Source of the DNA: Psammoneis japonica
Taxonomy: Eukaryota
NCBI GenBank assembly: GCA_008632985.1
Contig: QPGO01000176.1
Location: 133,970 to 153,969 of the forward strand
DNA length: 20,000 nucleotides
Reading direction: 5' to 3'
Made by a program: the position numbers and the translations under genes
In this document: positions 2,903-20,000 of the stretch, in pieces
How the letters are laid out: every line of letters begins with the position of its first letter
Position numbering within the stretch: position 1 is the first letter of the stretch
Notes under the pieces: model-generated
The model's input: only the letters and a program-made list of their open reading frames with translations
Told to the model about the DNA's origin: nothing
The model's database searches: none

Positions 2903-4702
2903 TTACTCCCCCAACTCTCCGAGAGTATTACTTTCCGATACCAGAAAAAGTCTGGGCATGAGATCTACAATTCGTTCATAATCTCGTCGAAAGGCGCGAG
3001 CGTCATGGTTCACCAGGTGGATCCACCCAGCGTCAGTACGAATATCAACTGTGGGTGCGATATGATGTCCCAGATCCATAAAGTGTGGGTATATTTCTAA
3101 TGCTGCAACGCTCTCCATCCTTTCAATTTCATCCAAAGCCGCTTCATTCAAGCCCATCAATATTCCATCAGCATGATTGACCAAGTGAACAATGGCCCCA
3201 TGGACTCGCGGCGAAGCCAAATCTGGCAGCGAGTCCCATTGGAGCCGAATTGGCGGAGGTTGACCTTCATCGAGTACGGCATCATCACTGACCTCATTGA
3301 AACTATTTTCTAGATAGGCAGAAAGAAGCATATCAAGAACATTGTAACCAATACAAAACATGGTAAGGGGCGCAAAGTCAGTATTGTGTTGACGGCAATT
3401 GACTTCGACCAACCGCGGCTTCCCGGTGGAATCTACAATGACTTCGCAGTGAGTCATACCCCATCGGATCCCAAGAGCATCCAGAGTCTTTGCAATGTAA
3501 TCGTACACCGCTCTCCCAATTTCCGTGTCGGCATCCACCAATTCTGTTGCATGATAAACAAAGTGAGCTCCATTGGCACGGCGCTTGTCATACTGCCAGA
3601 GAGCTCCAATCTTATGATGCCCATTTTTGCTAACAACATCAATGGCATATTCTGTGCCAGACGCAAACTCTTGGACCAAAACCGTATCGTGCTTTTCTCG
3701 AGGGGACCCGAAAACCGTGGAGCCATGAACCGTGTCGAATGCTGATTCTACCTCGTGGATATCACGACACAAGAACACATTGTCCGAAGCGACCCCTCGA
3801 ACCGGCTTGACGACACAAATAGGCTTCCGTAGTGGCTGAGCAGTACTTGCTATTTTTTCCATTCCGAGTTTTCCGATTTTGTTTATGTCGTCACTTCCTC
3901 CGCGGTCAACAGCAATCCCCTCAATGCGGATTCTGAGTTCATTAGCAAACTCGACTGCTTGTTCTCTACTACGACACAGCTTTTGCTGTACAACATCCAG
4001 TCCATACTCTCCCACTGCTTTATTCATGAGAAACTTGTCACGTCGTGCTTCATTGATGCCATTGGTATGGGTGACATTGAGCCGATCTCCCCAACGCTCG
4101 GCATCTGGCAGTCCCGAATCTGTTTCACATATAATACCAACAATTTCATCAAAAGGTAATTGGTCCATCCACTCTTTTGTTTTGTTGAGAGAAGGCAGTT
4201 GCTTCATGAGTTCCACATTGACTCGTTCTACTTCTTCCATGGGCGCCGACTCATCAAGCTCTTGCTTCCGAATTTGAAAGTAGCCTTTCATGTAATCGCT
4301 CAAGACGTAAGCAACACCAACGCCATACGCCTCTCTCGCCATTTTTGACAAGTACCCCGAGTGATAAATGGAAAAAACGTCCATTAAAATCAATCCCCTT
4401 TTTATATTTTTGTCGTGTTTATTCCAAACTGAGGGTAAATCACAGCACGGCGACAACTCCCCTTCTGAAGGACTTACTCGTGAATGATCTGTTTCTTTAC
4501 CGCTCTTCTCGTTTTCCATGCCACCACCGCGAGCCAACAACGGTGACGAAGTAGGTTCATTCTTGTCGATCCTTCCACTTATCAATGCCGGAGGAACCGG
4601 GACAAAGGAAAGCGAATTCTTTGCTGCTACCACGCCAACATGCCGTGAAAGAAACAACATGAGGGAGACGGAGCTTAGGACGCATCGATTTCGCATCTTC
4701 AT
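2903..4702 (-). CDS. ATP-grasp domain protein (L-amino-acid ligase / carboxylate-amine ligase-like) with N-terminal signal-like peptide
   Basis: Intact ~599-aa frame from ATG 4702 (MKMRNRCVLSSVSLMLFL..VVAA). ATP-grasp motifs: ARRDKFLM, VVKPVRGVASDNV, VLVQEFASGTEYAID, THCEV, LVEVNCR. Confidence 0.85.
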   Translation of the reverse strand: MKMRNRCVLSSVSLMLFLSRHVGVVAAKNSLSFVPVPPALISGRIDKNEPTSSPLLARGGGMENEKSGKETDHSRVSPSEGELSPCCDLPSVWNKHDKNIKRGLILMDVFSIYHSGYLSKMAREAYGVGVAYVLSDYMKGYFQIRKQELDESAPMEEVERVNVELMKQLPSLNKTKEWMDQLPFDEIVGIICETDSGLPDAERWGDRLNVTHTNGINEARRDKFLMNKAVGEYGLDVVQQKLCRSREQAVEFANELRIRIEGIAVDRGGSDDINKIGKLGMEKIASTAQPLRKPICVVKPVRGVASDNVFLCRDIHEVESAFDTVHGSTVFGSPREKHDTVLVQEFASGTEYAIDVVSKNGHHKIGALWQYDKRRANGAHFVYHATELVDADTEIGRAVYDYIAKTLDALGIRWGMTHCEVIVDSTGKPRLVEVNCRQHNTDFAPLTMFCIGYNVLDMLLSAYLENSFNEVSDDAVLDEGQPPPIRLQWDSLPDLASPRVHGAIVHLVNHADGILMGLNEAALDEIERMESVAALEIYPHFMDLGHHIAPTVDIRTDAGWIHLVNHDARAFRRDYERIVDLMPRLFLVSESNTLGELGE

Positions 4703-5524
4703 CTTCGTCAAACAGATTGTTCTACTCTCTACTCTCTCTACTAGTAGAGTACAGAGAGAGCCTGTTCCTGCCCACCAAGCCAAAACCAGCAGTCAGCATT
4801 AGCATGTTGTTGTTCGGTACTTTTTTGTGGAGCTCGAAAAGCTCGTGTGTAATTGCCCCTGCCTGATGGGGTGAGAAAGCATACCATACTGTATTTTTTA
4901 TTCGTGCATGTTGATCTCAGTAATATTTATACGAATGTATTAAATTTATGTACAATTGTACACGAATGATAACGTATAACCACCCTATATATCAACGGGG
5001 CCGTTTGTATGTACGACCCCTGCCATTATCGGTAGTCGTATGCGTTATCCGTTGTGAAAATATTAGCCCGTTATTGAAACTGTTACTTCTATCATGGCTA
5101 CCAAAATTGATACAAAATTTTCATTATCACCTACATGTGATTCCAAATTTTATGGGGAGTCCCGGTGACGGTAGGGCCCTAAGTATTCGTCGAGTGCGCA
5201 ACATTACACGAACCAGCCAAAAATCCCGTGACCCTCTCACAATTTTACAATTTCATCAGCAAAATATTCTGATTCGAACTACCGGTAAACAGGTGAAAGG
5301 TAAGTAGCATCAATTGTTATTGCATGTACTCATCATCAAAGTGACTGCGCCTTCCTGATGAGTGTCGAGTCGTCCACGAAGCTGTCATGTCGCAGTTTTC
5401 CATCGCTCCCGATATCTCTTTCGTTGCCACTGTTGGCCTTTCGTCCCCCCGTGCCTCCAACTTTGTTCTGCTTTGCCCGCATGCGCTGAAGCCTTCCTCG
5501 TGACTGTGGCGTTCCAAGGCGTCC

Positions 5525-5816
5525 TAGCTCCTTGTGTCCTTGGAGACGTCGGTTCATGCCATTGTGCACAGTGCAGCGAAATACTTGTCGAACCGGCAGT
5601 AGTCCGGGATGAGAAAAAGATGTTTTTGGATGTTCGTATAGGTGGGCTCACCAGACTCCCATGTCGCACTTCCTGGAGAGTCTTACTATAGCTCCTTGTG
5701 TCGTTGGAGACGTCGTTCATGCCATTGTGCTCAGTGTTACGAAGTGCTTATCTTGCCGGCGGTGGTCCTGGATGAAAAGATACTTTTTGGATCTTCGAAT
5801 AGGTCGACTCACCAGA
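5525..5816. repeat. Diverged direct duplication, ~130-bp unit (5525-5655 and 5689-5816)
   Basis: Both copies start tagctccttgtgtc.ttggagacgtc.gttcatgccattgtgc.cagtg and end tttttggat.ttcg.ataggt.g.ctcaccaga. Confidence 0.85.
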
Positions 5817-5995
5817 TCGCGAGCCAAAAATGCGCGCTTCACCGTCCTCTGTCTGCGATGATTCGCGTTTTTTTTCTTCGACGCGAAAATCCATGATCAC
5901 CATGATGTGTCCGTTTGTCCCTTAAATACTGAGCCCATGTTCATATCTGTCACTCACGCTTTCGTTACATGTTTGCCGCTCCCTACAGAATCAAC

Positions 5996-8365
5996 ATGAA
6001 AGTGCTGGTTCAAAAGTTCGCGCTATTGGCGCTTTTGGCCGCCCCTTTGCAAGGCGCTGAGACAGGAGGCCTTCGTGGGCCTGGTCCGCAAAACGACATT
6101 CGCCAACTTCGCAATTTGAGCGTGGGCGGATCGATTCATGGCTGTGTTGCAAATAACAAGGATCTTCGCTTTGTCGGAAGCGGAGACGGCTGCAGCTCCT
6201 ACGAGCAGTACGTCCACTTGAGTGCCTCTGATCTTAGTGGAGAAGTCCAACAGCCTCAAGAGAAGGCAAGCATGCGTCGCCGTCATCTTGGAAAGTCGGA
6301 GACGAGGCTATCTCCGGAATCGCATTCTGGCTCGGGACCAGGAATGTACATGGGAGGTGTCGTTCATGTCTGTATGAAGATGGACAAGTACATCCGCTTG
6401 GTCGATGGCATGAGCATGTGCAGCAATTCGGAAACCTACGTCTACTGGAAAGTAAAGGGAGACCGAGGCAAAGACGGAAAGGATGGTAAAGATGGAAAGG
6501 ATGGTAAAGATGGGAAGGACGGTTCCGACGGAAAAGATGGTAAAGATGGAAAGAAGGGAGAAAAAGGAGCTGACGGCGTGAATGGGAAGGATGGCAAAGA
6601 TGGAAGGAACGGAGTCGACGGACAGGACGGCCACGATGGAAAGGACGGCAGAAACGGCAAGGACGGAAGGGATGGTCGAGACGGAAGACATGGAAAGGAC
6701 GGTATGGACGGCTCTAGTGGTGCCGACGGCAGAGATGGCAAGGACGGTGCCGACGGCAGGCACGGCAAAGATGGCAAGGACGGTGCCGACGGCTCAAGTG
6801 GCGCTGATGGCAAGGACGGTGCCGACGGCAAGGACGGGAAAGATGGCGAGGACGGTGCCGATGGAAAGGACGGGAAAGATGGCGATGACGGTGCCGACGG
6901 AAAGGACGGCTCTAGTGGCGATGACGGCAAGGATGGTGCCGACGGAAAGGACGGAGCCGACGGAAAGGACGGTGTCGACGGAAAGGACGGTGTCGACGGA
7001 AAGGATGGCGAGGACGGAAAGGACGGTGCCGACGGAAAGGACGGCAAAGATGGCGACGACGGAAAGGATGGTGCCGACGGAAAGGACGGCGCGGACGGAA
7101 AGGATGGCAAGGACGGTGCCGACGGCTCAAGTGGCGATGACGGCAAGGACGGTGAAGACGGCAAGGACGGAAAGGATGGCGAAGACGGCGAAGACGGAAA
7201 GGATGGCGTCGACGGAAAGGATGGCAAAGATGGCGATGACGGAAAGGACGGAAAGGATGGCGATGACGGAAAGGACGGCGCCGACGGAAAGGACGGAAAG
7301 GATGGCGATGACGGAAAGGACGGTGCCGACGGAAAGGACGGCTCAGACGGAGCGGATGGCAAAGATGGAATGGACGGCTCAAGTGGCGATGACGGAATGG
7401 ACGGCGCCGATGGAAAGGACGGCAAAGATGGCGAGGACGGCAAGGACGGAAAGGACGGCGCCGACGGAAAGGACGGAGAAGATGGCGATGACGGTGCCGA
7501 CGGAAAGGACGGCAAGGACGGCGATGACGGCAAGGACGGTGCCGACGGAAAGGACGGCAAGGACGGTGATGACGGCAAGGACGGTGCCGACGGAAAGAAT
7601 GGCGTCGACGGAAAGGATGGCAAAGACGGAATGGACGGTTCAAGTGGCGATGACGGCAAGGACGGTGCCGACGGCAAGGACGGTGCCGATGGTAAGGATG
7701 GTGTTGACGGCAAGGACGGAAAGGATGGCGAAGACGGCGATGACGGCAAGGATGGCAAGGACGGAAAGGACGGCGCCGACGGCTCCAGTGGCGATGATGG
7801 AAAGGACGGCGCCGACGGCAAGGATGGCGAAGATGGTGAGGACGGCAAGGACGGTGCCGACGGCAAGGATGGCGATGATGGCAAGGACGGTGCTGACGGC
7901 AAGGACGGCATGGACGGCAAGGATGGCGAAGATGGTGAGGACGGAAAGGACGGAAAGAACGGCGTCGACGGAAAGGACGGATCAAGTGGCGACGACGGAA
8001 AGGACGGCGTTGACGGCAAGGATGGCGAGGACGGCGAGGACGGCAAGGACGGCAAGAACGGCAAGAATGGCGAGGACGGAAAGGATGGCGTAGACGGCAA
8101 GGACGGAAAGGATGGTGAAGATGGCAAGGACGGCGTCGACGGCAAGGACGGTTCCAGCGGTGATGACGGCAAGGACGGCATGGATGGCAAGGACGGCAAG
8201 GACGGCGAGGATGGCAAGAACGGCAAGAACGGCAAGGACGGCGAGGATGGCAAGGACGGTGAGGACGGCAAGGACGGCAAGGATGGCAAGGACGCTGTCG
8301 CCTTTTCGCCCAGTATGGATTCGCCTGATGATTCGCACATGGCCTCCCCCAGTCATTCGCGTTAA
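5996..8365 (+). CDS. Secreted collagen-like (Gly-X-Y) protein with duplicated Cys-containing N-terminal module
   Basis: Signal peptide MKVLVQKFALLALLAAPLQGA, then GLRG and RxL motifs (RQL, RHL), two GG.[IV]H.C......R.V.....C...E.YV modules, and a long Gly-X-Y tract. Alternative in-frame ATG at 5969. Confidence 0.9.
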   Translation: MKVLVQKFALLALLAAPLQGAETGGLRGPGPQNDIRQLRNLSVGGSIHGCVANNKDLRFVGSGDGCSSYEQYVHLSASDLSGEVQQPQEKASMRRRHLGKSETRLSPESHSGSGPGMYMGGVVHVCMKMDKYIRLVDGMSMCSNSETYVYWKVKGDRGKDGKDGKDGKDGKDGKDGSDGKDGKDGKKGEKGADGVNGKDGKDGRNGVDGQDGHDGKDGRNGKDGRDGRDGRHGKDGMDGSSGADGRDGKDGADGRHGKDGKDGADGSSGADGKDGADGKDGKDGEDGADGKDGKDGDDGADGKDGSSGDDGKDGADGKDGADGKDGVDGKDGVDGKDGEDGKDGADGKDGKDGDDGKDGADGKDGADGKDGKDGADGSSGDDGKDGEDGKDGKDGEDGEDGKDGVDGKDGKDGDDGKDGKDGDDGKDGADGKDGKDGDDGKDGADGKDGSDGADGKDGMDGSSGDDGMDGADGKDGKDGEDGKDGKDGADGKDGEDGDDGADGKDGKDGDDGKDGADGKDGKDGDDGKDGADGKNGVDGKDGKDGMDGSSGDDGKDGADGKDGADGKDGVDGKDGKDGEDGDDGKDGKDGKDGADGSSGDDGKDGADGKDGEDGEDGKDGADGKDGDDGKDGADGKDGMDGKDGEDGEDGKDGKNGVDGKDGSSGDDGKDGVDGKDGEDGEDGKDGKNGKNGEDGKDGVDGKDGKDGEDGKDGVDGKDGSSGDDGKDGMDGKDGKDGEDGKNGKNGKDGEDGKDGEDGKDGKDGKDAVAFSPSMDSPDDSHMASPSHSR
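6458..8293 (+). repeat. Coding 9-bp tandem repeat: 204 uninterrupted Gly-X-Y triplets (GKD, GAD, GED, GDD, GSS, GVD, GMD)
   Basis: 1836 nt = 612 aa with Gly at every third residue and no Pro. Synonymous codon variation between units. Confidence 0.95.
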
Positions 8366-9495
8366 TTCCTCATGTTTTGGTGGTGTTATGGAGAATAAAG
8401 GGCCGCAATTCATGAAGACTGCCTGCTAGCTTAGAGACACATTAACAACAGAATTATATGCACGCTCTCCCCATTTATCCTCTAATGTCATAGAGTACAT
8501 GCATGTCTCGTGCGAGAATCTCTTCAGGAGGAGAGAAGCAGAGGTCACGTCGATCGCGTCAAACATCGGAGCGGCATGCACAAGTTGTTGGCAACCGGTA
8601 TCAAAGGAAGCTGTGTCTGTTTGGCATGAGATATGTTGCACAAATCTCTTCCGAAGACTGTGAATGAGTTAACCGATTCTGGTTTCAGTCAATTCGCCGC
8701 TTCACGCGCCACCGCCTCAACTGCCCCCAGCTCACATTGTAAATCGAAAACTTGCGAGTGTAGTTCATGCGCCGCCAATTCTGATCTTAATGGGTCGACC
8801 AAGGAGACTGCTGGCACTAACATCGACGAGCTCTTTTTTGCGCCTGCGAAGTTCTGCTTCCGTCGTGAACAAGGCAGTGGCCTGATAACTCATTTGCAGC
8901 AATGGGGAACTACAGTCTTTGCCATGCAGGCGCGATTCTAGCTTTCCACGGTTCTCATTGTATCACAGTTGTCCTTGCTTTCGTCTTGCAGCTTTTCAAT
9001 CCAACTTTCGAACTTCTGGCACCTCACAACACCACAGAAGTAGATCCTTTTCCAACTGAAAATTCAAGGTGGGTGTCTCTGGCGATGTTGGCTCAAGTCT
9101 TGGCTTCAGGCGACATGCACTGTGTTCTCCAGATGTGATTGTGAAGTCACTGTGGCGCTGTGCTTGTGGAATGAATGGGGGGCATCACTGGCTGGTGCAG
9201 CTGTTAGCCACAGACCGAGCTGTTGGGAGTGCTGCTCTCTGCTGCCAGCAGTGGCCAGCAGCTGCCAGCTGCCAGCTCCTCCAGCTGGCTGGCAGAGCCA
9301 TCTGGCAGCTGCAGACACTGCAAAACAAGCTCCGGTTCACAAAATCGTGACGTCTTTTCATGACTCACACAAAACTGAATCCGCCAAAACCATCAAAATT
9401 TTTCTTCAAAATTTCATTTCCAATGAAAACCAGTTGGCTCGCTGGATGTGGTTCAGCAAATTGCCCAAGACTTTGGGCCAAAAGTGGCAATCGAT

Positions 9496-9735
9496 GAGTC
9501 TGCCTTTAAAGGGAACATCAAAGATTGTCTTGTGGGGCTGAGATGCCAGTGCATGACAACATCCATGCAGAGGCTGTGTGGCTGGCCTGGCACAGTGTTG
9601 CGCTGCTGGGCACTGATGCACCAGCAAGACAATTGGAGAGTGTGCCTTTCAAGGGCACATCAAAGATTGTCATGTGGAGCTGCAGCATCAGCGCGAATGA
9701 CACCCATTTGGAGCAGTGGTTGGCGTGGCACAGTG
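9496..9735. repeat. Diverged direct repeat, ~142-bp period, inside island 1
   Basis: gagtctgcctttaaagggaacatcaaagattgtc (9496) vs gagtgtgcctttcaagggcacatcaaagattgtc (9638). Both are followed by tggc.tggcacagtg. Confidence 0.8.
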
Positions 9736-10513
9736 CAGCATTTTGCAAGGTGCTGCCGTGCCACCAGCATGGGAACTGCATTTCGACAAGGTCGCTGCTC
9801 TGCTCTTGATGAGTGTGCTCAGAGCTGGGATGATGAGCAGGTCATTGTGCAAAATGCCTTTTCCAAATGACGTGGCAAGTGCATTGTGTGTTGCTTGGCA
9901 GGCAGCACCTTTGCTGGCTCAAGTTTTTTCACACGGCAGGGAAGATCAAAGATCAAAGGGTGCTTGTTTTGCAAACAAAGCGGGGCTCACTCTCTGTCTG
10001 ATGCTGGGTGCCCATCTCTTTGTTGTGAAAGTGAGCTGCTGCCACCACTCTGCACACATGCACGCCATTGACATGAGCCAAAATGAGGCACGCCAGACTC
10101 AACAAACAAAGCTGGCAAGGTGCTGACATCACACCATCTTCTGGCTGCAAAGCCCAGCACAAAAAAGGATGCAGGCAGCAAACCAGACTTGTGGTTTCCT
10201 GCAAATGTTGAAGCACATGCACAAAACAGCAGCACCCCAGCCAAAAAGAAAATCTGCAAGAGGTGTGCTGCACACACAGGGCTGATTCTGTGGAAAAAAA
10301 AAACAACAATGTGTGTGTGTGGAGGTGCTTTTTGAAGAAGCCGTTGAATGGGGCCACACTCCAAGCACCTCGCTGTTGACAATTTTGAGCACACAGCTGT
10401 TCTGAGAATCTTTGTGTTTGCAATTTTGGCAGTGCAGGGGCTGGCTGCAGATGACAAAACAGTTGCCAGGGCAGCACCAGGTTGCAGCCAGATCTCATGA
10501 AACTGACACCCCC

Positions 10514-10639
10514 CTTTCCGATCTCAACTTGGGTGCAATGACAGCCTTCCCAGCCATTTTCATTTGGCCTGCACATGGCTGTTGCCCCGTGACCAAATCA
10601 GTTTGTCTTTCCGATCTTGACTTGGGTGCAATGACAGCC
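10514..10639. repeat. 33-bp direct repeat (10514-10546, 10607-10639)
   Basis: ctttccgatctCAacttgggtgcaatgacagcc vs ctttccgatctTGacttgggtgcaatgacagcc. Confidence 0.9.
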
Positions 10640-11165
10640 ATGACTGTCTGGGTGCTTTTTGTGCAAATCCAAGCACCTGCACTTGATCATTGCCACAGAT
10701 GTTTTCACTCATGGGAACATTTTCAAAATTGTCACTGAAATTGTTGTGTTCAATGTCTTCATGTTGAATGTTGACACATTTGGCTGTCTGGGCAATGATT
10801 TCCACGCCGATTTGTCCACTTGTCTTCACCCACCCTCACTGGCTCAATCCTTGTGTTTCCAGTCCAGTTCCAGACGTGCCAGAAGATCGCGCATGCCACC
10901 AATGAAACAGTGCGCGTTTCTCCACTCTACAGTAGAGTAGAGAGAGAACAGAGTCGCGAAAACGAATGCAGCACGAGTACACTGGACTACAATTATTGCT
11001 TGTAGCATTCCACCGTGGCGCTGTTTTCATATCATTATGTACAGACAACAGCAAAAGACTAGAAAGATAATCATGCCTTACAGACAACAGGAACACACTA
11101 GAAAACATCGCTACTACCGCGTTCAGCTACTCGACTGCGCCCATCAACTCAACATCGACAACACC

Positions 11166-13962
11166 TTACGGAGCACGAAGCAGATTCTCCAAGGCGGTCT
11201 TGGCCATGGTGGCATAGGGTGCAGCCTCCGTCTTGAGACAAATTTTGCAAGCATTCACACCCTCTTTAAATGTGAGTTCCGCCAAGAATTGCATCGCAGT
11301 CACGGTACGCATGGAAAAGTAGACAACCTCCTGTCCCTCGGCGTTCGGTACGGGACGACGGGCAATAAAAAAGACATTGTTAGTCTTGAATTTGGCTTGG
11401 ACCTCTTCAATATCCGTCGTGGGCAAGTCGGTCACGGTGCTGTACATTTCCTTTTGGTCGTCAATCGACTTCCACGCTTCGATAAAGGCGGATCGATCCA
11501 GGGCACCGTCTGGGCTAAAGAGTGCCTCTAATGCAAAGTTGGCGGCAAAGTAAAAGACGTTGCTCGTGGCCATGTTCTTAATGGCAACTTGAATCTGTGG
11601 AGACGCTTGCTGTCCGGCAGCAACAGGTGCCAGCATAGCGGGAGTCACGACAAGCTCTACTTGGGCCGCTCCCGACGAACCATGTGGAACGTGCGGGTTC
11701 AACATAATCTGCTGACTTGCAGGGCTCAACCCAAACGCGTTCTTGTTCAACTGAATAGCCAAGTTAGATACGGGCGTCTCGGAAGAGACGTTGCGAAATT
11801 CCATTTCCATCTTGATTGCCGAGTTGATTTGATGGAAGCCAGCAAGGATTTCAATGCCGCCAGACTTGTCGGGAGTACAAACCTGGTGCATGATGGGCTT
11901 GGACTAAAGCAGTAGAGCGCGGAAAAAATGTAAAGGGGTAAGAAGACAACAGTGACAAAATTATAACAGCAACATATGGAGCAGCACGTACCACAACTCC
12001 AAAAGCATCTGGCGCCGATCGGTCGTCCGTCACAGCGAGTCCTCCCATATCTAGCAAATCCACCTGTCCGTCTTCACCATCGTCTACATCATTCTCTCCT
12101 TCATACTCCACATCTTCCTCCTCGTCTTCTTCTTCGTAAGCCTCCTCTTCGACACCCCGTCCCGCGTGCCCACGCACCACAAAGGCTTCAGGTGGCTTGT
12201 GATATACCGAACTGAGAGTGGCAATCTGTCCAATGAGCGCGTTAAGCAGCGCCGGTTCCAGCCGAAAGGTGTCATCCTCAATAACGGGCTTGTCGCCAAG
12301 CACCACCATTTTGGCTGCTTCCGGATCCGTACTGAGCAATCGCCAGTAGATAAAGCCACGATCTCTTAGGTCTGGATTGTCCGATTCCTCCGTGGCCATA
12401 TCCAAAACGCGCTGTACCATGTCTTGGGTATCTTCGGGGTTTTTCAAAAAGCACTTGACGGTTGCCGTCAGTAGTTGCAGCTGCACTGCGGGGTCTTCTT
12501 CTTCAAAGGTTTCCAAAAAGGTATCGAGCAACTCATCGGCATTGTCAATCCGCTCTGCGTATTCTCCAATAATCCAAATCATACTCGCCTTGGCAAGTGG
12601 TTCGTCGAGCGTGTCAAGATTATCACAGAGAGTGGCAATTATGCTTTCATACCGATTGGGGTAACGACGGAAAATGTCCTTAATGACAATAACGGATTCC
12701 TGCACCACATAGTTGACCTTGGTTTGAATGAGTTCAAGCAAGACGCCAATGCACCGTTCCGCGGCGCGTTCCAACTTGACGGCGCACCGTCCAATAGCCG
12801 AGACCGACTTGCGGACAAAGTCAACATCAACCTCGGTGGCGTACTCCTTGAGTTCCAAAAGGACTTGATCGATATTCTTTTCGGAAACGAGTTTAATAAT
12901 AATCTCAAGCTTTTCCATCTTGACGTAGATCGGGTCATTGTACTTGCAGAAGAAGACCTTGATCTCGTTCTCCAAAATGCTGGGACGCTTCTGCACAATT
13001 AGGTTAATGTTTCGGAGTGCCACGTACTGAACTTCCGGCTCGCTATTCAAAAGAGTAACAAGCGGTGGAGCGAGTTTGCGTGTCAGGTTGCGAACCGCGT
13101 CCGAGTTTTGGTTTCCCATGTACTCCATGTAGCTGAGAATAACTTTGACAGCACTCATCACAACCGCCGAATTGGCATGCTGCAGTCGCGGAGTGACTCG
13201 TTCGATAATTCCCTCAGCTTCTCGTCCATCCGTAGGAGTGTACTTGGCGAGCGAATCCAAAATAAAAACTTGTCCCCACTCGGTACACTCGTTGAGTGCG
13301 GCCAATAGCTTCTGCAAGACACTGGCCGAAATCTTCATGACATCCCGTCCAGACGTTTCGGCAATTTCCGAAAGAGCCGCCACGCCATTGGCCACTACGG
13401 ATGGATTGGAATCGGAAATCAAATCATGCAACACTTCTAAAAAGCCTCGTTCTTGCACCAGCGCCGGAGCAATGTCGTACAACTTGGCAACACAAACAGC
13501 AGCTGTCTTGCGGACATAGGGATCGTCATCTCGCAAAGCACGCGAGAGAGGTTCGCAGAGATACTCCGTAATGCGATCGACACGAATACAGCCCATAGTA
13601 CGGACGGCAAGTGCTCGAATAAGCGGATTGGGATCGTTGGCGTCCTTCACAAAGGTGTTTACAGCCAACAGCGTTAGTTCCGGTTGGCTCTTGGCATAAT
13701 TGATCAAGTACAGGTACACGAGCTTTTTCAATTCGATATTTCCTGTTTGAACGCAGTTCAACACATCGGTAAACAGCATAGATACGTCCTTGCCGACCGT
13801 CATGCTGGCAATTACTTTCTTTACAGCGTCCACCTTGGTGTTGCGGTCTGTCGAGTGCAATTCCAACCGGAGCTCGTGCATCTCGCCTTTTTTCTGCGTC
13901 GTAAAGAAGCGAGAGTCGGAGCCAGCCGCTCCGCCCGGACCATGACCACTATCTTTGGGCAT
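11166..13962 (-). CDS. AP1B1: AP-1/AP-2 adaptor complex beta subunit (beta-adaptin), 2 exons: 13962-11992 and 11903-11166, ~902 aa
   Basis: Adaptin N-terminal trunk ([54 protein letters not shown]), an acidic hinge, and the beta appendage ([22 protein letters not shown]). Splicing joins DAFGVV|SKPIMHQ in frame. Confidence 0.95.
11904..11991 (-). other. 88-nt GT-AG spliceosomal intron in beta-adaptin
   Basis: Minus-strand donor GTACGT at 11991, pyrimidine-rich tract, acceptor TTTAG ending at 11904. Phase 0; removal restores the reading frame. Confidence 0.9.
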
Positions 13963-14583
13963 TGTTCTTGATGTTTAGCAGTAGTGCTGCGTTATGTTTC
14001 TGTCATGCAAAAGAGAGACAGAGCAGAGAGCAGCGAAGTCAGAAACGGTATGATTGACAAGAAAAAAGCATCGCGTATCCACGGCCGGCGTAGAAAGTGT
14101 ACTGTGTTCTACGTAGCATCACGCAATCACACAACCAAGCAGCGTTGGTCTCTGTTAAAGTTGCTCTCGATACACAGCGCAGTCCATCAACCGATGCGTT
14201 ACATTCAAACGTCGCTTTTGTTGCTCACCTCAAAATGATATCAATAGAGACAAAAACACGGCGTTTGGAGAGGCGCACAACGAACAAGTGCCGACCGGTT
14301 GTCTTTGGCTGCGAGTGGACAGTGTGAATGTTGAACAAAGACCGATTATCCTCGAATATAAAGCGCTGAATAATGTACAATATATGGGCTATTCATACAC
14401 GATTGTAAATAAATTTTCAATAAAAATATGTCTATCAGTCAGTGCGGCTGTGGAATGGGTGACGATGTTGCCTGGCTGTCGATGCGTTACCGTGCCAAAT
14501 GCGCGCAAGTCGCGCGAATTGACTGACGTGTGTTGTATTCTTCCCTCCGACCTCCGACCCGCCGACACCTACCGAACCCGACC
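13963..14583. promoter_or_regulatory. Divergent intergenic region (probable bidirectional promoter) between beta-adaptin and CysRS
   Basis: Head-to-head gene arrangement with an AT-rich core at ~14355-14430. No specific element verified. Confidence 0.45.
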
Positions 14584-16318
14584 ATGGCCATTTCCCTCCA
14601 AACACAAACCATCCTTTTGAAAAGCTTCGCGATATTCACCATGGCACGCTATTCCCTTATTGCTGTTTTTTTCGTTATCTATAATGACTCTCCCATCAAT
14701 GCGTGGTCACCCACTAATTGCATACCTTTTCAAAGAAACGGAGGAATACAACAACAACGACGCCACATCAAAACATCTTCATCTTCACTCCACGCCATTT
14801 CGCAAGACGATTTGATCCTCTACAATACAAAAACACGTCAAAAAGAACCCTTTCAAACTCTTGAAAAGAATAAAGTCAGTATGTACACGTGTGGTCCGAC
14901 CGTCTACGACAGTGCGCACGTTGGAAACTTTCGTGCATTCCTGACCTATGATGTACTCAAACGAGTCTTGCTGTATCTGGGATACTCGGTAGAGCACATT
15001 TGCAACCTAACCGACGTGGATGACAAGATTATTAAAAAATGTCAGGATACGAATACGGATCTTTATACCATTACGAGAAAATATGAACAAGCCTTTATGG
15101 ATGATTTGGACGCGCTCAACATTATCCGGGCGTCCAAGTACCCCCGTGCAACAGAACACATTGATGAAATGGTCGAGTTGGTACTCATGCTGAGGGACAA
15201 GGGACTTGCCTATCAAACTGATGAGGGATCGTGGTATTTTGCAGTAGACAAAAAAGAGGGCTATGGACAACAATTGGTGCAACTCAACTTTGACGAAATG
15301 GAAGCGTCTGAGCGAAATACAGAACAAGACAAGCGCGGTGCCTTTGACTTTTGTTTATGGAAAGCCTATAAGCCCGGTATTGATTTGGAGCAAGATGCCA
15401 CGTGGGATAGTAAGGAGTTGGGAAAGGGACGGCCAGGATGGCATCTGGAATGTTCCGCTATGGCTCGAAAGTACTTGGGTGACACTATTGACGTGCATTG
15501 CGGCGGAGTGGATTTGACCTTTCCCCATCACGAGAACGAAATCGCTCAATCTGAGGGAGCCACCGACAAGGTCTTTTGTAATTGCTGGGTCCATAATGGC
15601 TTTGTCAATATTAATGACGAGAAAATGTCGAAGAGTCTCGGCAACTTTCTGACTTTGCGAGCGGCGTGTCCCAAACCAAACGAAGTCCGTGCTTATCGTT
15701 ACTTGGTGTAAGCTCACAGTACAGGAATCCGCTCAGTTTCACTCCAAAGGCCATGAGTGCCGCCAAGGGAGCACTCAAGCGAATGGACAAGATTCGAAAT
15801 GAAATTGCAGACGCATTGAAGGAGACGGTGCAAGAGGATTCATGCAGTATGAATGCCAAGGACAGCGAGATTGCCTACAAGGTGGTTCGTGCACAGATTG
15901 ACAATTTTGAAGCCGCATTGGTGGATGATTTGAGTATGCCACGAGCAGCAGCATCTCTCTTTGCCTGTGTCAAGGCTGCCGAGAATGAATTCAAACGTGT
16001 CAAGAAAGCAAAAGACGAGGGTGACGTGCCTCCTTTGGATTTGGTTGGCTTGAAAGCCGTCCAGGACGCCATGGACCAAATGGATAAGGTTTTTGGTATC
16101 TTTTATCAAGTTCCTTTAACAGAAAAGGAGCAAGAGGAATAGAGGCAAAGACCGTAGTACCCGACCAAGTACTAGACTTGGTGGAACAGAGGACAGCCGC
16201 CAAAGAGGCCAAAGACTGGGAGCTGGCGGATTCTTTGCGAGCGAGAATTACCGAACTAGGCTTTGCCGTCAAAGACGTAAAGGGAGGCGATCCAATAGTT
16301 AGTCGAGTAACAGACTAG
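14584..16318 (+). CDS. cysS: Cysteinyl-tRNA synthetase, organellar/bacterial type, with two apparent -1 frameshifts (~15707, ~16140)
   Basis: MYTCGPTVYD, HVGN (HIGH motif), NLTDVDDKII, DFCLWK, GRPGWHLECSAM, FPHHENE, KMSKSLGNF. Continues in the next frame (SSQYRNPLSF, DDLSMPRA) and a third frame (R..AK..KDWELADSLR..I..LG..VKD) to TAG 16316-16318. In-frame ATGs at 14584 and 14641. Confidence 0.92.
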
Positions 16319-16797: not shown

Positions 16798-16817
16798 CCC
16801 CCCCCCCCCCCCCCNCC
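16798..16817. other. Poly-C tract containing an N (probable contig/scaffold junction)
   Basis: C17-N-CC with N at 16815. Composition changes abruptly across it. Confidence 0.75.
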
Positions 16818-17006
16818 AAACACGCATGCACGTGTTCGTCAAGCCCTTGTCAGTGCCATTTGACCAATGTAAGAGCTGCACATCCGAAGCTTCAAATGCC
16901 ACTCATCAGCCTGTTGCCAGGTTGAAATCACCGCCAATCTTTGCCAAAATTGCACTGCTTGTGGCAGAAAGCCACAACTTTCCAGGAAATGCTGCTGACA
17001 GTTGGC

Positions 17007-17155
17007 ATTTGATTGTCCACAGAGACAAAGTCTGCAGCTGACAAGCTGAGCATCTTGCATGACCAGATCCATGGTCAACAATCCTTGAGGATTTGATTGT
17101 CCACAGAGACAAAGTCTGCAGCTGTTGCATGACCAGATCCGTGGTCAACAAATCC
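17007..17155. repeat. Tandem duplication, 84-bp period
   Basis: atttgattgtccacagagacaaagtctgcagctg...ttgcatgaccagatcc[a/g]tggtcaacaa at 17007 and 17091. Confidence 0.9.
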
Positions 17156-17517
17156 TCTCGAGGAGATTGGGGTCAAGCTTGTGTCCAGTGCACTTGAGAG
17201 CATCATTCTGAGCACAGCACAACACAGCACTTGCACTCCACATGGTGAAGCAAATCAATCATGCTCTCTTCTGTGACTGCACATTCTGCAACAACAGCTT
17301 CCATCCTGCGCCTGAGTCCAGGACAGCTGAGCCTGTCTAAAAGGTCAAGAAGGAGGGCTGGGATTTCTTGAGCAGAGAACTTTGACCAAAAAGTTTTTCA
17401 CAGCACAAGAGTTGGAGAAAGGATTGAAAGCAACATGGCTTTGTTCCATCAGCCACACTTGCATGATTCTTCTTGTGTTTGCACTTGGATTTGCACTGAG
17501 CTTGCTCTGCAAGAGCA

Positions 17518-17894
17518 CTCTTGAAATGTTCTTCCTCCAACAGCAAACAAGATGTTGGAAAATTTCATTGACTTGCAGACAAGGCCCAACATCCTTCTGG
17601 GAGCAGGTCTTGGCAGCATTCTTTGGAGGGCTCCAAATCTGAAACATTCCAGGATTTTTCAACGCAGAGCCAGAAGGAGCTGCAGCATGGTCAGCAAGTT
17701 GTTGCTCTTGAAATGCTCTTCCTCCAACAGCAAACAAAGCATTGTTGGAGAGTTTCATTGACTTGCAGACAAGGCTCTCCCAGTGTTCTTCTGGAGAAGG
17801 TCTTAGCAGCATTCTTGGGAGGGCTTTAAATCTGAAACATTCCAGAATTTTTGAATGCAAAGCCGGAAGGAGCTGCAGCATGGTCAGCAAGTTG
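17518..17894. repeat. Tandem duplication, ~187-bp period
   Basis: ctcttgaaatg.tcttcctccaacagcaaacaa ... gaaggagctgcagcatggtcagcaagttg at 17518 and 17705. Confidence 0.92.
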
Positions 17895-18813
17895 CGGCAT
17901 GTGGGCACTTGCCAAGTTGCTGCTGTGGTGGCTTTTGGTGTTTTGACATCATGGCACATCTTTTCAGCCCATGGAGCTGCAAACTGTTGTTGTCCACAGG
18001 TGTGTCTGCCACTCCAACCACCAGCACATCACACCTGTCATCTTCAGTCCACCTCATTTGCTTTTGCAGCCAAGACAGCAGGCCAAGCATGCCAGAAGAA
18101 GATGATCTCTTGTGGGCAGCTGAGCTCTCAGAGAAGTCACCACGCAGTGGAGCAGCATGCAAAAGGAGAAGATGGATGGAAAGATGATGGATGACAAGAA
18201 GAGGCTGCCCCAGCTCCCCCCGCTGTTCTTGGCAGATGATTGGTGTGGTGATGGGATCCATGGAGGCAACCTGACATGAGCCAAATTGCTGAAAACCCCA
18301 TTTCTGTTGACTGGCATGCTTCTCACAATTGTCTGCACATGTGCTTGGCACTGTTTTTTCCACAGTTTTGGCCAGATTGTTTGATCTGGTGCTGGCACAA
18401 ATCATGTGTCTTCAGTTGTCATGCTTGGTCTAGAGTCAGAGATCTGTGCAAGCCAGCCAGCTGCACATGATGCCTGCACTGTTTTGTTGACTTTGACACA
18501 TGGGATCACAGCATGGCAGTGCATCTTGGTGCTTTTGTCATTTTGGTTTGGCCGCTGGTCAGCCGTCACAATGCCTCTCAATCCAGGTAAAATTTGATCT
18601 GCCATTTTGTTTTTTTTGGGTTTCTCACACCAGAGCACAAGTGTGTTGTTCATGTGGCCTGCAACAAAATGTCTGCTGTTCTGCATTGTCAGGTTTTTTC
18701 TTCTTTGTGTTTGGCATGTTTGGTGTCATTTCTTTTTGTCTGCCATTGTGGTTGTCACACTTGATTTCTGTTGTTTGTCTGTCTTTTGTGAGCTTCTCTC
18801 TGAGTGACCACCA

Positions 18814-18976
18814 TTCCGACATTTTCAAATCTGTTGTCCTTTTGACCATTCGACCACACATCATGTGTGCTTTTGTGCCAGCGGAGAAATTGCTTTCTGA
18901 CATTTTCAAATCTGTTGTCCTTTTTGACCATGACACACATCATGTGTGCCTGTGTGCCAGTGGAGAAATTGCTTTC
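18814..18976. repeat. Tandem duplication, ~81-bp period
   Basis: gacattttcaaatctgttgtccttttgaccat...cacatcatgtgtgc...tgtgccag.ggagaaattgctttc occurs twice. Confidence 0.9.
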
Positions 18977-19703
18977 ACACAACCTTTTGTGATTTCAAAT
19001 CTTTGTTGCTCTGCTGCAAGAGCAAAATGTTCCTTTTCTGAAGCCTTGGACCTTTTTCCTTCTGAGTTGCAAGCCATGCAGCTGTGTTTCTCTCATCTTT
19101 GTCATGAAAGAATGCTGAAATCAAGGTCAATGCAGGATCTCAAGATGGGGCAAAGCGAGGGTCGGCAGGAGCAGCAAGAGGCGATGTGTGCGCCGGCAGC
19201 ATTGAGAGATCGACATTGTCAGATGCTGTGCTTTTTGTCCAGACGTGTGTCCCGCTTGACAGGGTCATTGGGGTTGCATGCAATTCCGTGACAAGTGATC
19301 ATGATGGCGTCTGCAGCATGAAATGTTGTTGCATGTCTGCTGCGTTCAACTGGCGATCCTTCGCAGGCACCTCCTCTGTTTGTGTCAGAAGGTGCAGGGT
19401 GGGCGGATGTCATCCCCGTGCGCCGGCGATTCTTCCGACAAAGCAACACAGGCCTGTCATGAAAGATCAGTGGCATGAATGCCCGCATTGCCCGCATGTC
19501 ACCGTCATCGCAAAACCTCTAAAGTTTCGGTCGTTGCCATCGCCCCAAAGTCAGAATCCACAGCCCCTGCCTGCATCGTCATCGAGGCCAGAAGAGCATT
19601 CCGCTTTGTGCATTGGAAAGATTCTGGGTTGGCACTGAGTGCAATCGTTTCAACAAAACAACAGAAGAATCTCGTTCCAAACAACGCAGCTGGGCAACGT
19701 GAC

Positions 19704-19902
19704 GTCGACGGCTTCCAACCCGAGGGCAAATGACGACGAATCACCGTGCTGACATTGCCCAGCGTTTTGCCAAACAAAAAGGACAACTGCGGTGACGTCA
19801 TGTCGACGGCTTCCGAACCCGAGGGCAAACGACCAAGAACAATCACCGTGCTGATGTTGCCGGATGCACCAAAATGAACATGCGTTTTGCCCAAACAAAA
19901 GG
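19704..19902. repeat. Diverged tandem duplication, ~98-bp period
   Basis: gtcgacggcttcc..acccgagggcaaa.gac...aatcaccgtgctga[ca/tg]ttgcc...gcgttttgcc.aaacaaaa occurs twice. Confidence 0.85.
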
Positions 19903-20000
19903 ATGGTTGCGCGACAGTGCAACTGCCACACACTCTCGCGCCATGGCTCCGAAATCAAATTTGCGCAAGAGCCACAGTGCAAGTTTCGGCGAAACACTCA

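Follow-up and report, generated by a model that had tools for sequence, protein, structure and literature searches.

Mettrop et al. (bioRxiv 10.64898/2026.01.13.699255) report hypermutation confined to the TpA dinucleotide in silent integrated DNA of nucleocytoplasmic large DNA viruses (NCLDV) and virophages in Bigelowiella natans. According to the available text of that preprint, 231 of the 302 nuclear mutations found by mutation accumulation lay in two integrated giant-virus/virophage regions, where the mutation rate was about 1000 times background, and 230 of these 231 were A>G or T>C changes, every one at a TpA. [quoted passage not shown] As far as this text goes, it mentions neither diatoms nor CpG, and TpA-directed hypermutation of silent DNA is so far described in one preprint and one species. 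Here, we describe two islands that are almost devoid of TpA, and rich in CpA and TpG, in a 20,000-nucleotide stretch of contig QPGO01000176.1 of Psammoneis japonica (positions 133,970 to 153,969; the whole stretch is referred to as the window, and positions are counted from its first letter).

Fungal repeat-induced point mutation (RIP), which depends on RID/Dim-2, is like the pattern at this locus in that it produces regional, dinucleotide-specific transitions and sharp compositional islands in non-genic or duplicated DNA. It differs in direction: RIP turns CpA/TpG into TpA, whereas the islands show the opposite, with TpA at 0.02 and CA/TG at 1.86 of expectation in island 1. We rejected RIP itself, because there is neither TpA enrichment nor CpA/TpG loss and because each island occurs only once in the window and resembles neither the other island nor any remaining part of it. 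An earlier note on this DNA had proposed a ‘reverse RIP’ for one of the islands and had known of no pathway described for it. That is outdated: the available text of the preprint describes the same spectrum in B. natans, and it is the occurrence in a diatom that would be new.

Results

Two islands of the window are nearly free of TpA

Island 1 (1885 bp, 50% G+C) contains two TpA, compared to 116 expected from its base composition (observed/expected, o/e, 0.02) and 76 expected if TpA were as frequent as in the non-island DNA around it (Poisson P = 4e-30). TG (226) and CA (212) each have an o/e of 1.86, CpG is reduced to 34 (o/e 0.29), and ApA is not depleted (o/e 1.34). The TpA-erased island claimed in the earlier note is thus confirmed, while its claim of sharp edges holds for one side: to the right, TpA is absent over 9508-10927 (a gap of 1421 bp), after which six follow within 67 bp, but the left edge is softer, with TpA at 9041, 9205 and 9507. 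At the right edge CpG is back from 10805 and TpA only from 10928, such that the TpA-free zone runs about 120 bp further than the CpG-poor zone. The hexamer AGTAGA is present at both edges (9039-9044 and 10931-10936), perhaps as a target-site duplication left by an inserted element.

A 250-bp profile of the whole window revealed a second, larger island that extends from 16818 to the window end. Island 2 has seven TpA in 3184 bp, where the local rate predicts 128 (P = 4e-45), and it has 344 TG and 345 CA. The CpG o/e is 0.0-0.29 over 17001-19000 and 0.73-1.12 over the last 850 bp, in which there is a single TpA. The TpA-free zone therefore extends beyond the CpG-poor zone, which argues that TpA loss is no side effect of CpG methylation decay. 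The poly-C run containing an N at the left edge (Table 1) may be an assembly join, and the adjacency of island 2 to the cysteinyl-tRNA synthetase gene is therefore uncertain. The tandem duplication at 19678-19861, in the CpG-normal tail, is rich in ACGT-core motifs (GACGTC, TGACGTCA-like) and might serve the regulation of a gene that lies past the end of the window.

The loss of TpA is regional. As stated in the earlier note, the flanking DNA contains TpA: the 18,115 bp outside island 1 have 540 (o/e 0.48). We determined TpA o/e by codon junction in the three flanking genes without repeats (four open reading frames, ORFs, since the adaptin was counted as two): codon positions 1-2 gave 0.40-0.65, positions 2-3 gave 0.37-0.61, and the step from one codon to the next gave 0.62-0.85. 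The values are lower for the collagen-repeat gene (0.29-0.40), whose repeat core (6751-8250) has only three TpA, is CpG-rich (o/e 1.4-1.7) and has normal CA+TG; this low TpA is a codon and composition effect, separate from the island phenomenon. TpA is at an o/e of about 1 in the two divergent promoter gaps (67 in 1185 bp; 29 in 567 bp), 23 TpA occur in the 677 bp that separate island 1 from the collagen stop codon (8366-9042), and the intron of the adaptin gene has eight compared to 5.4 expected. Thus, genes, promoters and intron keep their TpA, and the process is not genome-wide. The islands themselves are located between transcription units.

The missing TpA is balanced by CpA and TpG

Pyrimidine-purine steps make up 0.252 of all steps in island 1 and 0.243 in island 2, compared to 0.242-0.283 in five other regions of the window, and inside the islands these steps are almost all CA or TG. 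We computed deficits and excesses against a 12,946-bp local baseline. Island 1 has a TA+CG deficit of 153 and a CA+TG excess of 162; for the CpG-poor part of island 2 the corresponding numbers are 210 and 182. At 19151-20000, the TpA deficit is 33, the CpG surplus is 8 (net 25) and the CA+TG excess is 39, roughly equal to the TpA deficit alone. CpG depletion with gain of TpG/CpA is present in the islands and accounts for only part of their CA+TG excess. This balance fits transitions at TpA together with ordinary CpG decay.

The anomaly is purely at the dinucleotide level. Tri- and tetranucleotide o/e ratios, given the lower orders, are 0.51-1.42 in the islands, and this analysis yielded no longer motif behind the TpA loss. 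Strand-coordinated runs of TG or CA are absent by runs tests (z = -0.65 and 0.72). In 200-bp bins, TG-versus-CA patchiness reaches a modest level in island 1 (P = 0.002); that of island 2 misses significance at 0.05 (P = 0.056).

These properties set the islands apart from three further systems. Diatom transposons are methylated, and the decay of methylated CpG resembles the pattern here in the CpG o/e of 0.1-0.3 over most of both islands and in the gain of TG/CA; it differs in that it is unable to remove TpA, and the TpA-free zone reaches into CpG-normal DNA. Hyper-editing by ADAR and hypermutation by APOBEC3, which the preprint discusses for nucleic acids of viruses and retro-elements, are alike in producing deaminase-type transitions with a 5′-neighbour preference that are aimed at invading sequences; they act on RNA or single-stranded intermediates and are strand-biased, whereas the islands are TG/CA-balanced and not depleted of ApA. 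An ADAR-edited retrocopy, which would carry A>G changes on a single strand, in UA and AA contexts, was rejected on the TG and CA counts (226 vs 212 and 344 vs 345), the non-significant runs tests and the ApA o/e. Very-short-patch repair causes the scarcity of CTAG in E. coli, and its biased T:G repair likewise turns a TA-containing word into CA/TG-containing words. That system is bacterial, tetranucleotide-specific and genome-wide, whereas the islands lose TpA in every context and only regionally.

Duplicates within the islands differ at CA/TG doublets

The internal duplications of island 1 that the earlier note had reported are real, and the two islands together contain six internal duplicate pairs, 71-99% identical over the aligned blocks (see Table 1 for examples). 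These pairs differ at 81 positions, 54 by transition and 27 by transversion. Among 29 adjacent double mismatches, CA is aligned to TG in nine, while the next type occurs three times; the nine CA/TG doublets cover 18 of the 81 mismatched positions. Exactly such doublets arise when an ancestral TA or CG undergoes one transition in each copy, and since the doublets lie between copies, erasure went on after the duplications. All three leftover TpA inside duplicates are opposite TG or CA in the sister copy; two of them are in one copy of the 17499-17894 duplication, opposite TG and CA in the other copy.

The two islands have about 1130 CA/TG sites, each one transition away from TA, and their duplicates have diverged by 6-30%, yet only nine TpA are present. 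We therefore infer that TpA removal is continuing or was very recent.

The islands have the compositional signature reported in B. natans

We applied the thresholds given in the available text of the B. natans preprint, which combine Rho TpA with Rho CpA+TpG in 1-kb windows and join consecutive passing windows into a cluster. The five 1-kb windows that lie inside the islands all pass; the other 15 of the stretch do not. Island 1, at only 1.9 kb, yields two passing windows (starting at 9001 and 10001), with Rho TpA of 0.05 and 0.09 and Rho CpA+TpG of 1.81 and 1.83. In island 2, the windows at 17001, 18001 and 19001 pass, with Rho TpA of 0.04, 0.03 and 0.02 and Rho CpA+TpG of 1.72, 1.93 and 1.55; these three consecutive windows form a cluster at 17001-20000. 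As controls, we used 80 metagenome loci that encode beta-adaptin relatives, 23 of them longer than 4 kb, whose assignment to diatoms is our own reading. Of their 315 windows one passes, and it is a (CTCA)n-type microsatellite.

Microsatellites constitute a false-positive class for such scans: a seawater metagenome contig with a 71%-identical adaptin (L040) has (CTCA)n/(GTT)n/(GAAC)n arrays at both ends (1-1000 and 5750-6100), and these arrays alone meet the TpA-low, CA+TG-high thresholds.

The likeness to B. natans, as far as the available text describes that genome, extends to the TpA to TpG/CpA logic on both strands, to kilobase clusters in which TpA is depleted and CpA+TpG enriched, and to regional restriction beside normal genes; many affected B. 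natans regions are also unannotated. There are differences. The host is a diatom (stramenopile) here and a chlorarachniophyte (rhizarian) there, and erasure here is near complete (Rho TpA 0.02-0.09, compared to 0.45 in B. natans for its NCLDV region). Strong CpG decay accompanies the diatom islands, and the text of the preprint makes no mention of CpG. In B. natans new mutations were observed live; the diatom islands are a sequence footprint. Full-text literature searches, preprint supplements not covered, returned the B. natans preprint as the only relevant paper and no report of TpA erasure in diatoms.

The islands are non-coding

Codon-usage scores for 16 island ORFs are -0.03 to -0.36, compared to +0.22 to +0.43 for four real coding segments, and the island frames show no codon-position G+C pattern. 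None of 95 stop-free island frames of at least 40 aa reaches a Pfam cutoff; four have E values of 0.019-0.049, which are below the curated cutoffs. Two island ORFs of 214 and 264 aa have no homologue, one in a word-indexed protein search and the other among 1.84 billion representatives. The islands are non-coding DNA, and their frames are long because TAA and TAG are missing on both strands. Synteny with the island side is not conserved in those 23 of the adaptin loci that exceed 4 kb.

Host and neighbouring genes

Among the 120 best adaptin relatives listed, identity to the adaptin of the window is 84-96%, except for two at 58-59%. Of the 19 that name an organism, 17 are diatoms (several names were truncated and were completed by us); the others are an insect entry (59% identity) and a ciliate-labelled transcriptome. 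The adaptin relatives being mostly diatoms, the host is, on this evidence, a diatom.

The annotated features are collected in Table 1; besides the island frames, Pfam was searched with two sets of 11 and 9 ORFs. The cysteinyl-tRNA synthetase frame is broken at 15709-15710, with 2 nt between ..YRYLV and SSQYRNPLSF.., and no intron of plausible length fits the break (15700-15725), which is either an assembly indel or a genuine frameshift in an essential gene. Over the collagen gene, both strands carry several long false frames. The earlier note had used a decayed pseudogene at 60-2553 as a TpA-containing control, and this is unsupported: a FYVE zinc-finger ORF lies at 2305-2667 on the minus strand (E 1.5e-14), followed by further minus-strand frames, and the minus-strand region 1-2809 may instead represent a gene of several exons. 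There are no Rfam matches anywhere in the window.

Table 1. Features of the window, in order of position
Feature	Position	Strand	Remarks
ATP-grasp protein	2903-4783	-	Pfam search of window ORFs
Collagen triple-helix repeat protein (798 aa)	5969-8365	+	PF01391, E 1e-99; 3′ end toward island 1
Island 1	9043-10927		Between 3′ ends of convergent collagen and adaptin genes; CpG-poor until about 10800
Leftover TpA, island 1	9205-9206		Outside any duplicate
Diverged tandem duplication, island 1	9488-9635 vs 9630-9778		71% identity; 4 CA/TG doublets
Leftover TpA, island 1	9507-9508		CpA at aligned site of sister duplicate copy
33-bp direct repeat pair, island 1	10514-10546 vs 10607-10639		94% identity; sole two differences form one CA/TG doublet
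AP-1/2 beta-adaptin	11166-13962	-	Pfam and relatives; 3′ end toward island 1
Adaptin intron, 88 nt, GT..AG	11904-11991	-	Contains 8 TpA
Cysteinyl-tRNA synthetase, two frames	14530-16142	+	Pfam; 3′ side toward island 2
17 C, one N, 2 C	16798-16817		Exactly at left edge of island 2
Island 2, TpA-free and CpG-poor part	16818-19150		6 TpA, 18 CpG
193-bp tandem duplication, island 2	17499-17894		83-86% identity; 2 CA/TG doublets; two leftover TpA
Island 2, TpA-free and CpG-normal part	19151-20000		1 TpA, 59 CpG; continues past window end
~97-bp tandem duplication, island 2 CpG-normal part	19678-19861		2 CA/TG doublets; 5 shared CpG

Discussion

On balance, we think it rather probable that the islands are silent non-coding DNA in which a regional process has converted TpA to TpG/CpA to saturation, with decay of methylated CpG superimposed. 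Indirect hints of silence are the location of the islands between transcription units and their non-coding codon scores; no RNA run is among the sequencing runs listed for this DNA. The earlier note had proposed such a regional conversion on both strands, and the balance of deficits and excesses, the constant step total, the doublets, the leftover TpA and the spared genes all fit it, so that the note is supported in part. Its direction of change stays putative, as discussed below, and its targeting to repeats or heterochromatin is unsupported, the islands being unrelated to each other and present once each in the window. The diatom is then probably a second lineage with a process of the B. natans type. 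In the mechanism we consider most likely, an adenine that follows T would be deaminated in DNA and the resulting inosine copied as G, such that TpA would become TpG by A>G, or CpA by T>C when the other strand is affected, while decay of methylated CpG would add TpG/CpA across most of the same DNA. Silent chromatin, or the absence of transcription, would be the targeting cue, and TA would have been lost from the islands rather than never present in them. The tRNA substrate of ADAT2/TadA presents A34 directly after the invariant U33, which makes an enzyme of the ADAT2/TadA type attractive as the leading candidate.

More tentatively, and with slightly less than even confidence, we suggest that diatoms share with B. 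natans one TpA-specific DNA-editing system, either old in the supergroup of stramenopiles, alveolates and rhizarians (SAR) or widespread, which here has saturated silent intergenic DNA without recognisable viral or transposon content. If the system is shared, the reach of TpA erasure into CpG-normal DNA implies that the editing domain is set independently of CpG methylation.

Several observations weigh against regional conversion. The searches found no outgroup or intact relative of the islands, and the direction from TA to TG/CA is not polarised; the CA/TG doublets can also be derived from ancestral CpG. The hypermutated B. natans regions are of foreign origin, whereas the Pfam and homologue searches gave no sign of a viral or transposon origin for the islands, although heavy decay could mask it. 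The 80 adaptin loci, which contain little intergenic DNA, have no comparable TpA-free stretch: the longest gap is 629 bp, and it is 345 bp among the 16 loci of 42-53% G+C within the top-30 list. The right edge of island 1 is sharp within a few bases; an insertion boundary or selection would account for this more readily than a chromatin domain would. This edge, together with AGTAGA on both sides, leaves room for an inserted, pre-edited element and is a weak point of our interpretation. Finally, only one DNA sequencing run contains the stretch, and the assembly may have been made from that very run.

The edges bear directly on an alternative that we regard as unlikely. Under it, the islands would have been free of TpA from the start, as inserted elements or as functional non-coding DNA, would lose it to selection, or would have been edited before integration; selection might act to avoid a TA-cutting nuclease, transposons that target TA, poly(A) signals containing UA or RNases specific for UA. 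The abrupt right edge and the hexamer pair of island 1 speak for this alternative, as does the start of island 2 at the poly-C junction, but by our estimate a 6-bp match within ~20 bp of two edges arises by chance roughly 10% of the time, and the two island ORFs searched have no homologue. The extent of duplicate divergence and the 54:27 ratio of transitions to transversions point to weak constraint, the doublets show change at self-complementary steps after duplication, and a TA-free seed that is passively inherited cannot explain nine TpA among about 1130 CA/TG sites, a state that calls for continuing removal. We think it quite unlikely that an untargeted, genome-wide bias from TpA to TpG/CpA is responsible, with selection keeping TpA elsewhere and the islands being the only unconstrained DNA at equilibrium. 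TpA is indeed under-represented throughout the window, and the islands coincide with its only long gene-free stretches. Against it, sites under weak constraint keep their TpA, namely across codons and at codon positions 2-3 of the non-repeat genes, in the adaptin intron, in the 677 bp beside island 1 and in the promoter gaps.

Conversion of TpA might instead proceed by other chemistry, either error-prone or biased repair recruited by dense deamination of 5-methylcytosine or oxidation of thymine to 5-hydroxymethyluracil (hmU) or formyluracil, read as C; we hold this to be improbable to a similar degree. Polymerase eta has a hotspot at WA (W, A or T), hmU and base J prefer TpA, and CpG depletion coincides with TpA loss over most of both islands. 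The TpA-free zone nevertheless outruns the CpG-poor zone, by ~120 bp in island 1 and 850 bp in island 2, and the ApA o/e of 1.34 is unlike a WA signature. A sequencing or assembly artefact, be it a modified base miscalled in silent DNA or an error of the draft assembly or of its polishing, seems to us very improbable. The assembly is indeed of draft quality: the poly-C beside island 2 contains an N, and the synthetase frame is interrupted by 2 nt. On the other side, the contigs of the one DNA run contain 0.78 of 289 sampled 31-letter words of 8400-11200 (two sister runs contain next to none); since island 1 makes up 67% of that interval, at least about two thirds of its words are present by our arithmetic, and in our view such a share is unlikely to come from noisy long reads. 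Furthermore, the flanks, from the same data, have normal TpA, and the same signature is real in the Illumina data of B. natans, as far as the preprint text reports them (10.64898/2026.01.13.699255).

The islands carry a caution for annotation: with a single kind of stop codon left on each strand, such DNA gives rise to long false ORFs. If our interpretation of regional TpA conversion is correct, the process would not be peculiar to chlorarachniophytes, and it would be linked to, and partly separated from, CpG methylation domains. Searches for the deaminase or repair factor by comparison would have a second genome to draw on, and two distant lineages would let phylogenetic profiling find both the enzyme and the targeting cue. 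Diatoms are transformable, and the mechanism would therefore be directly testable in them.

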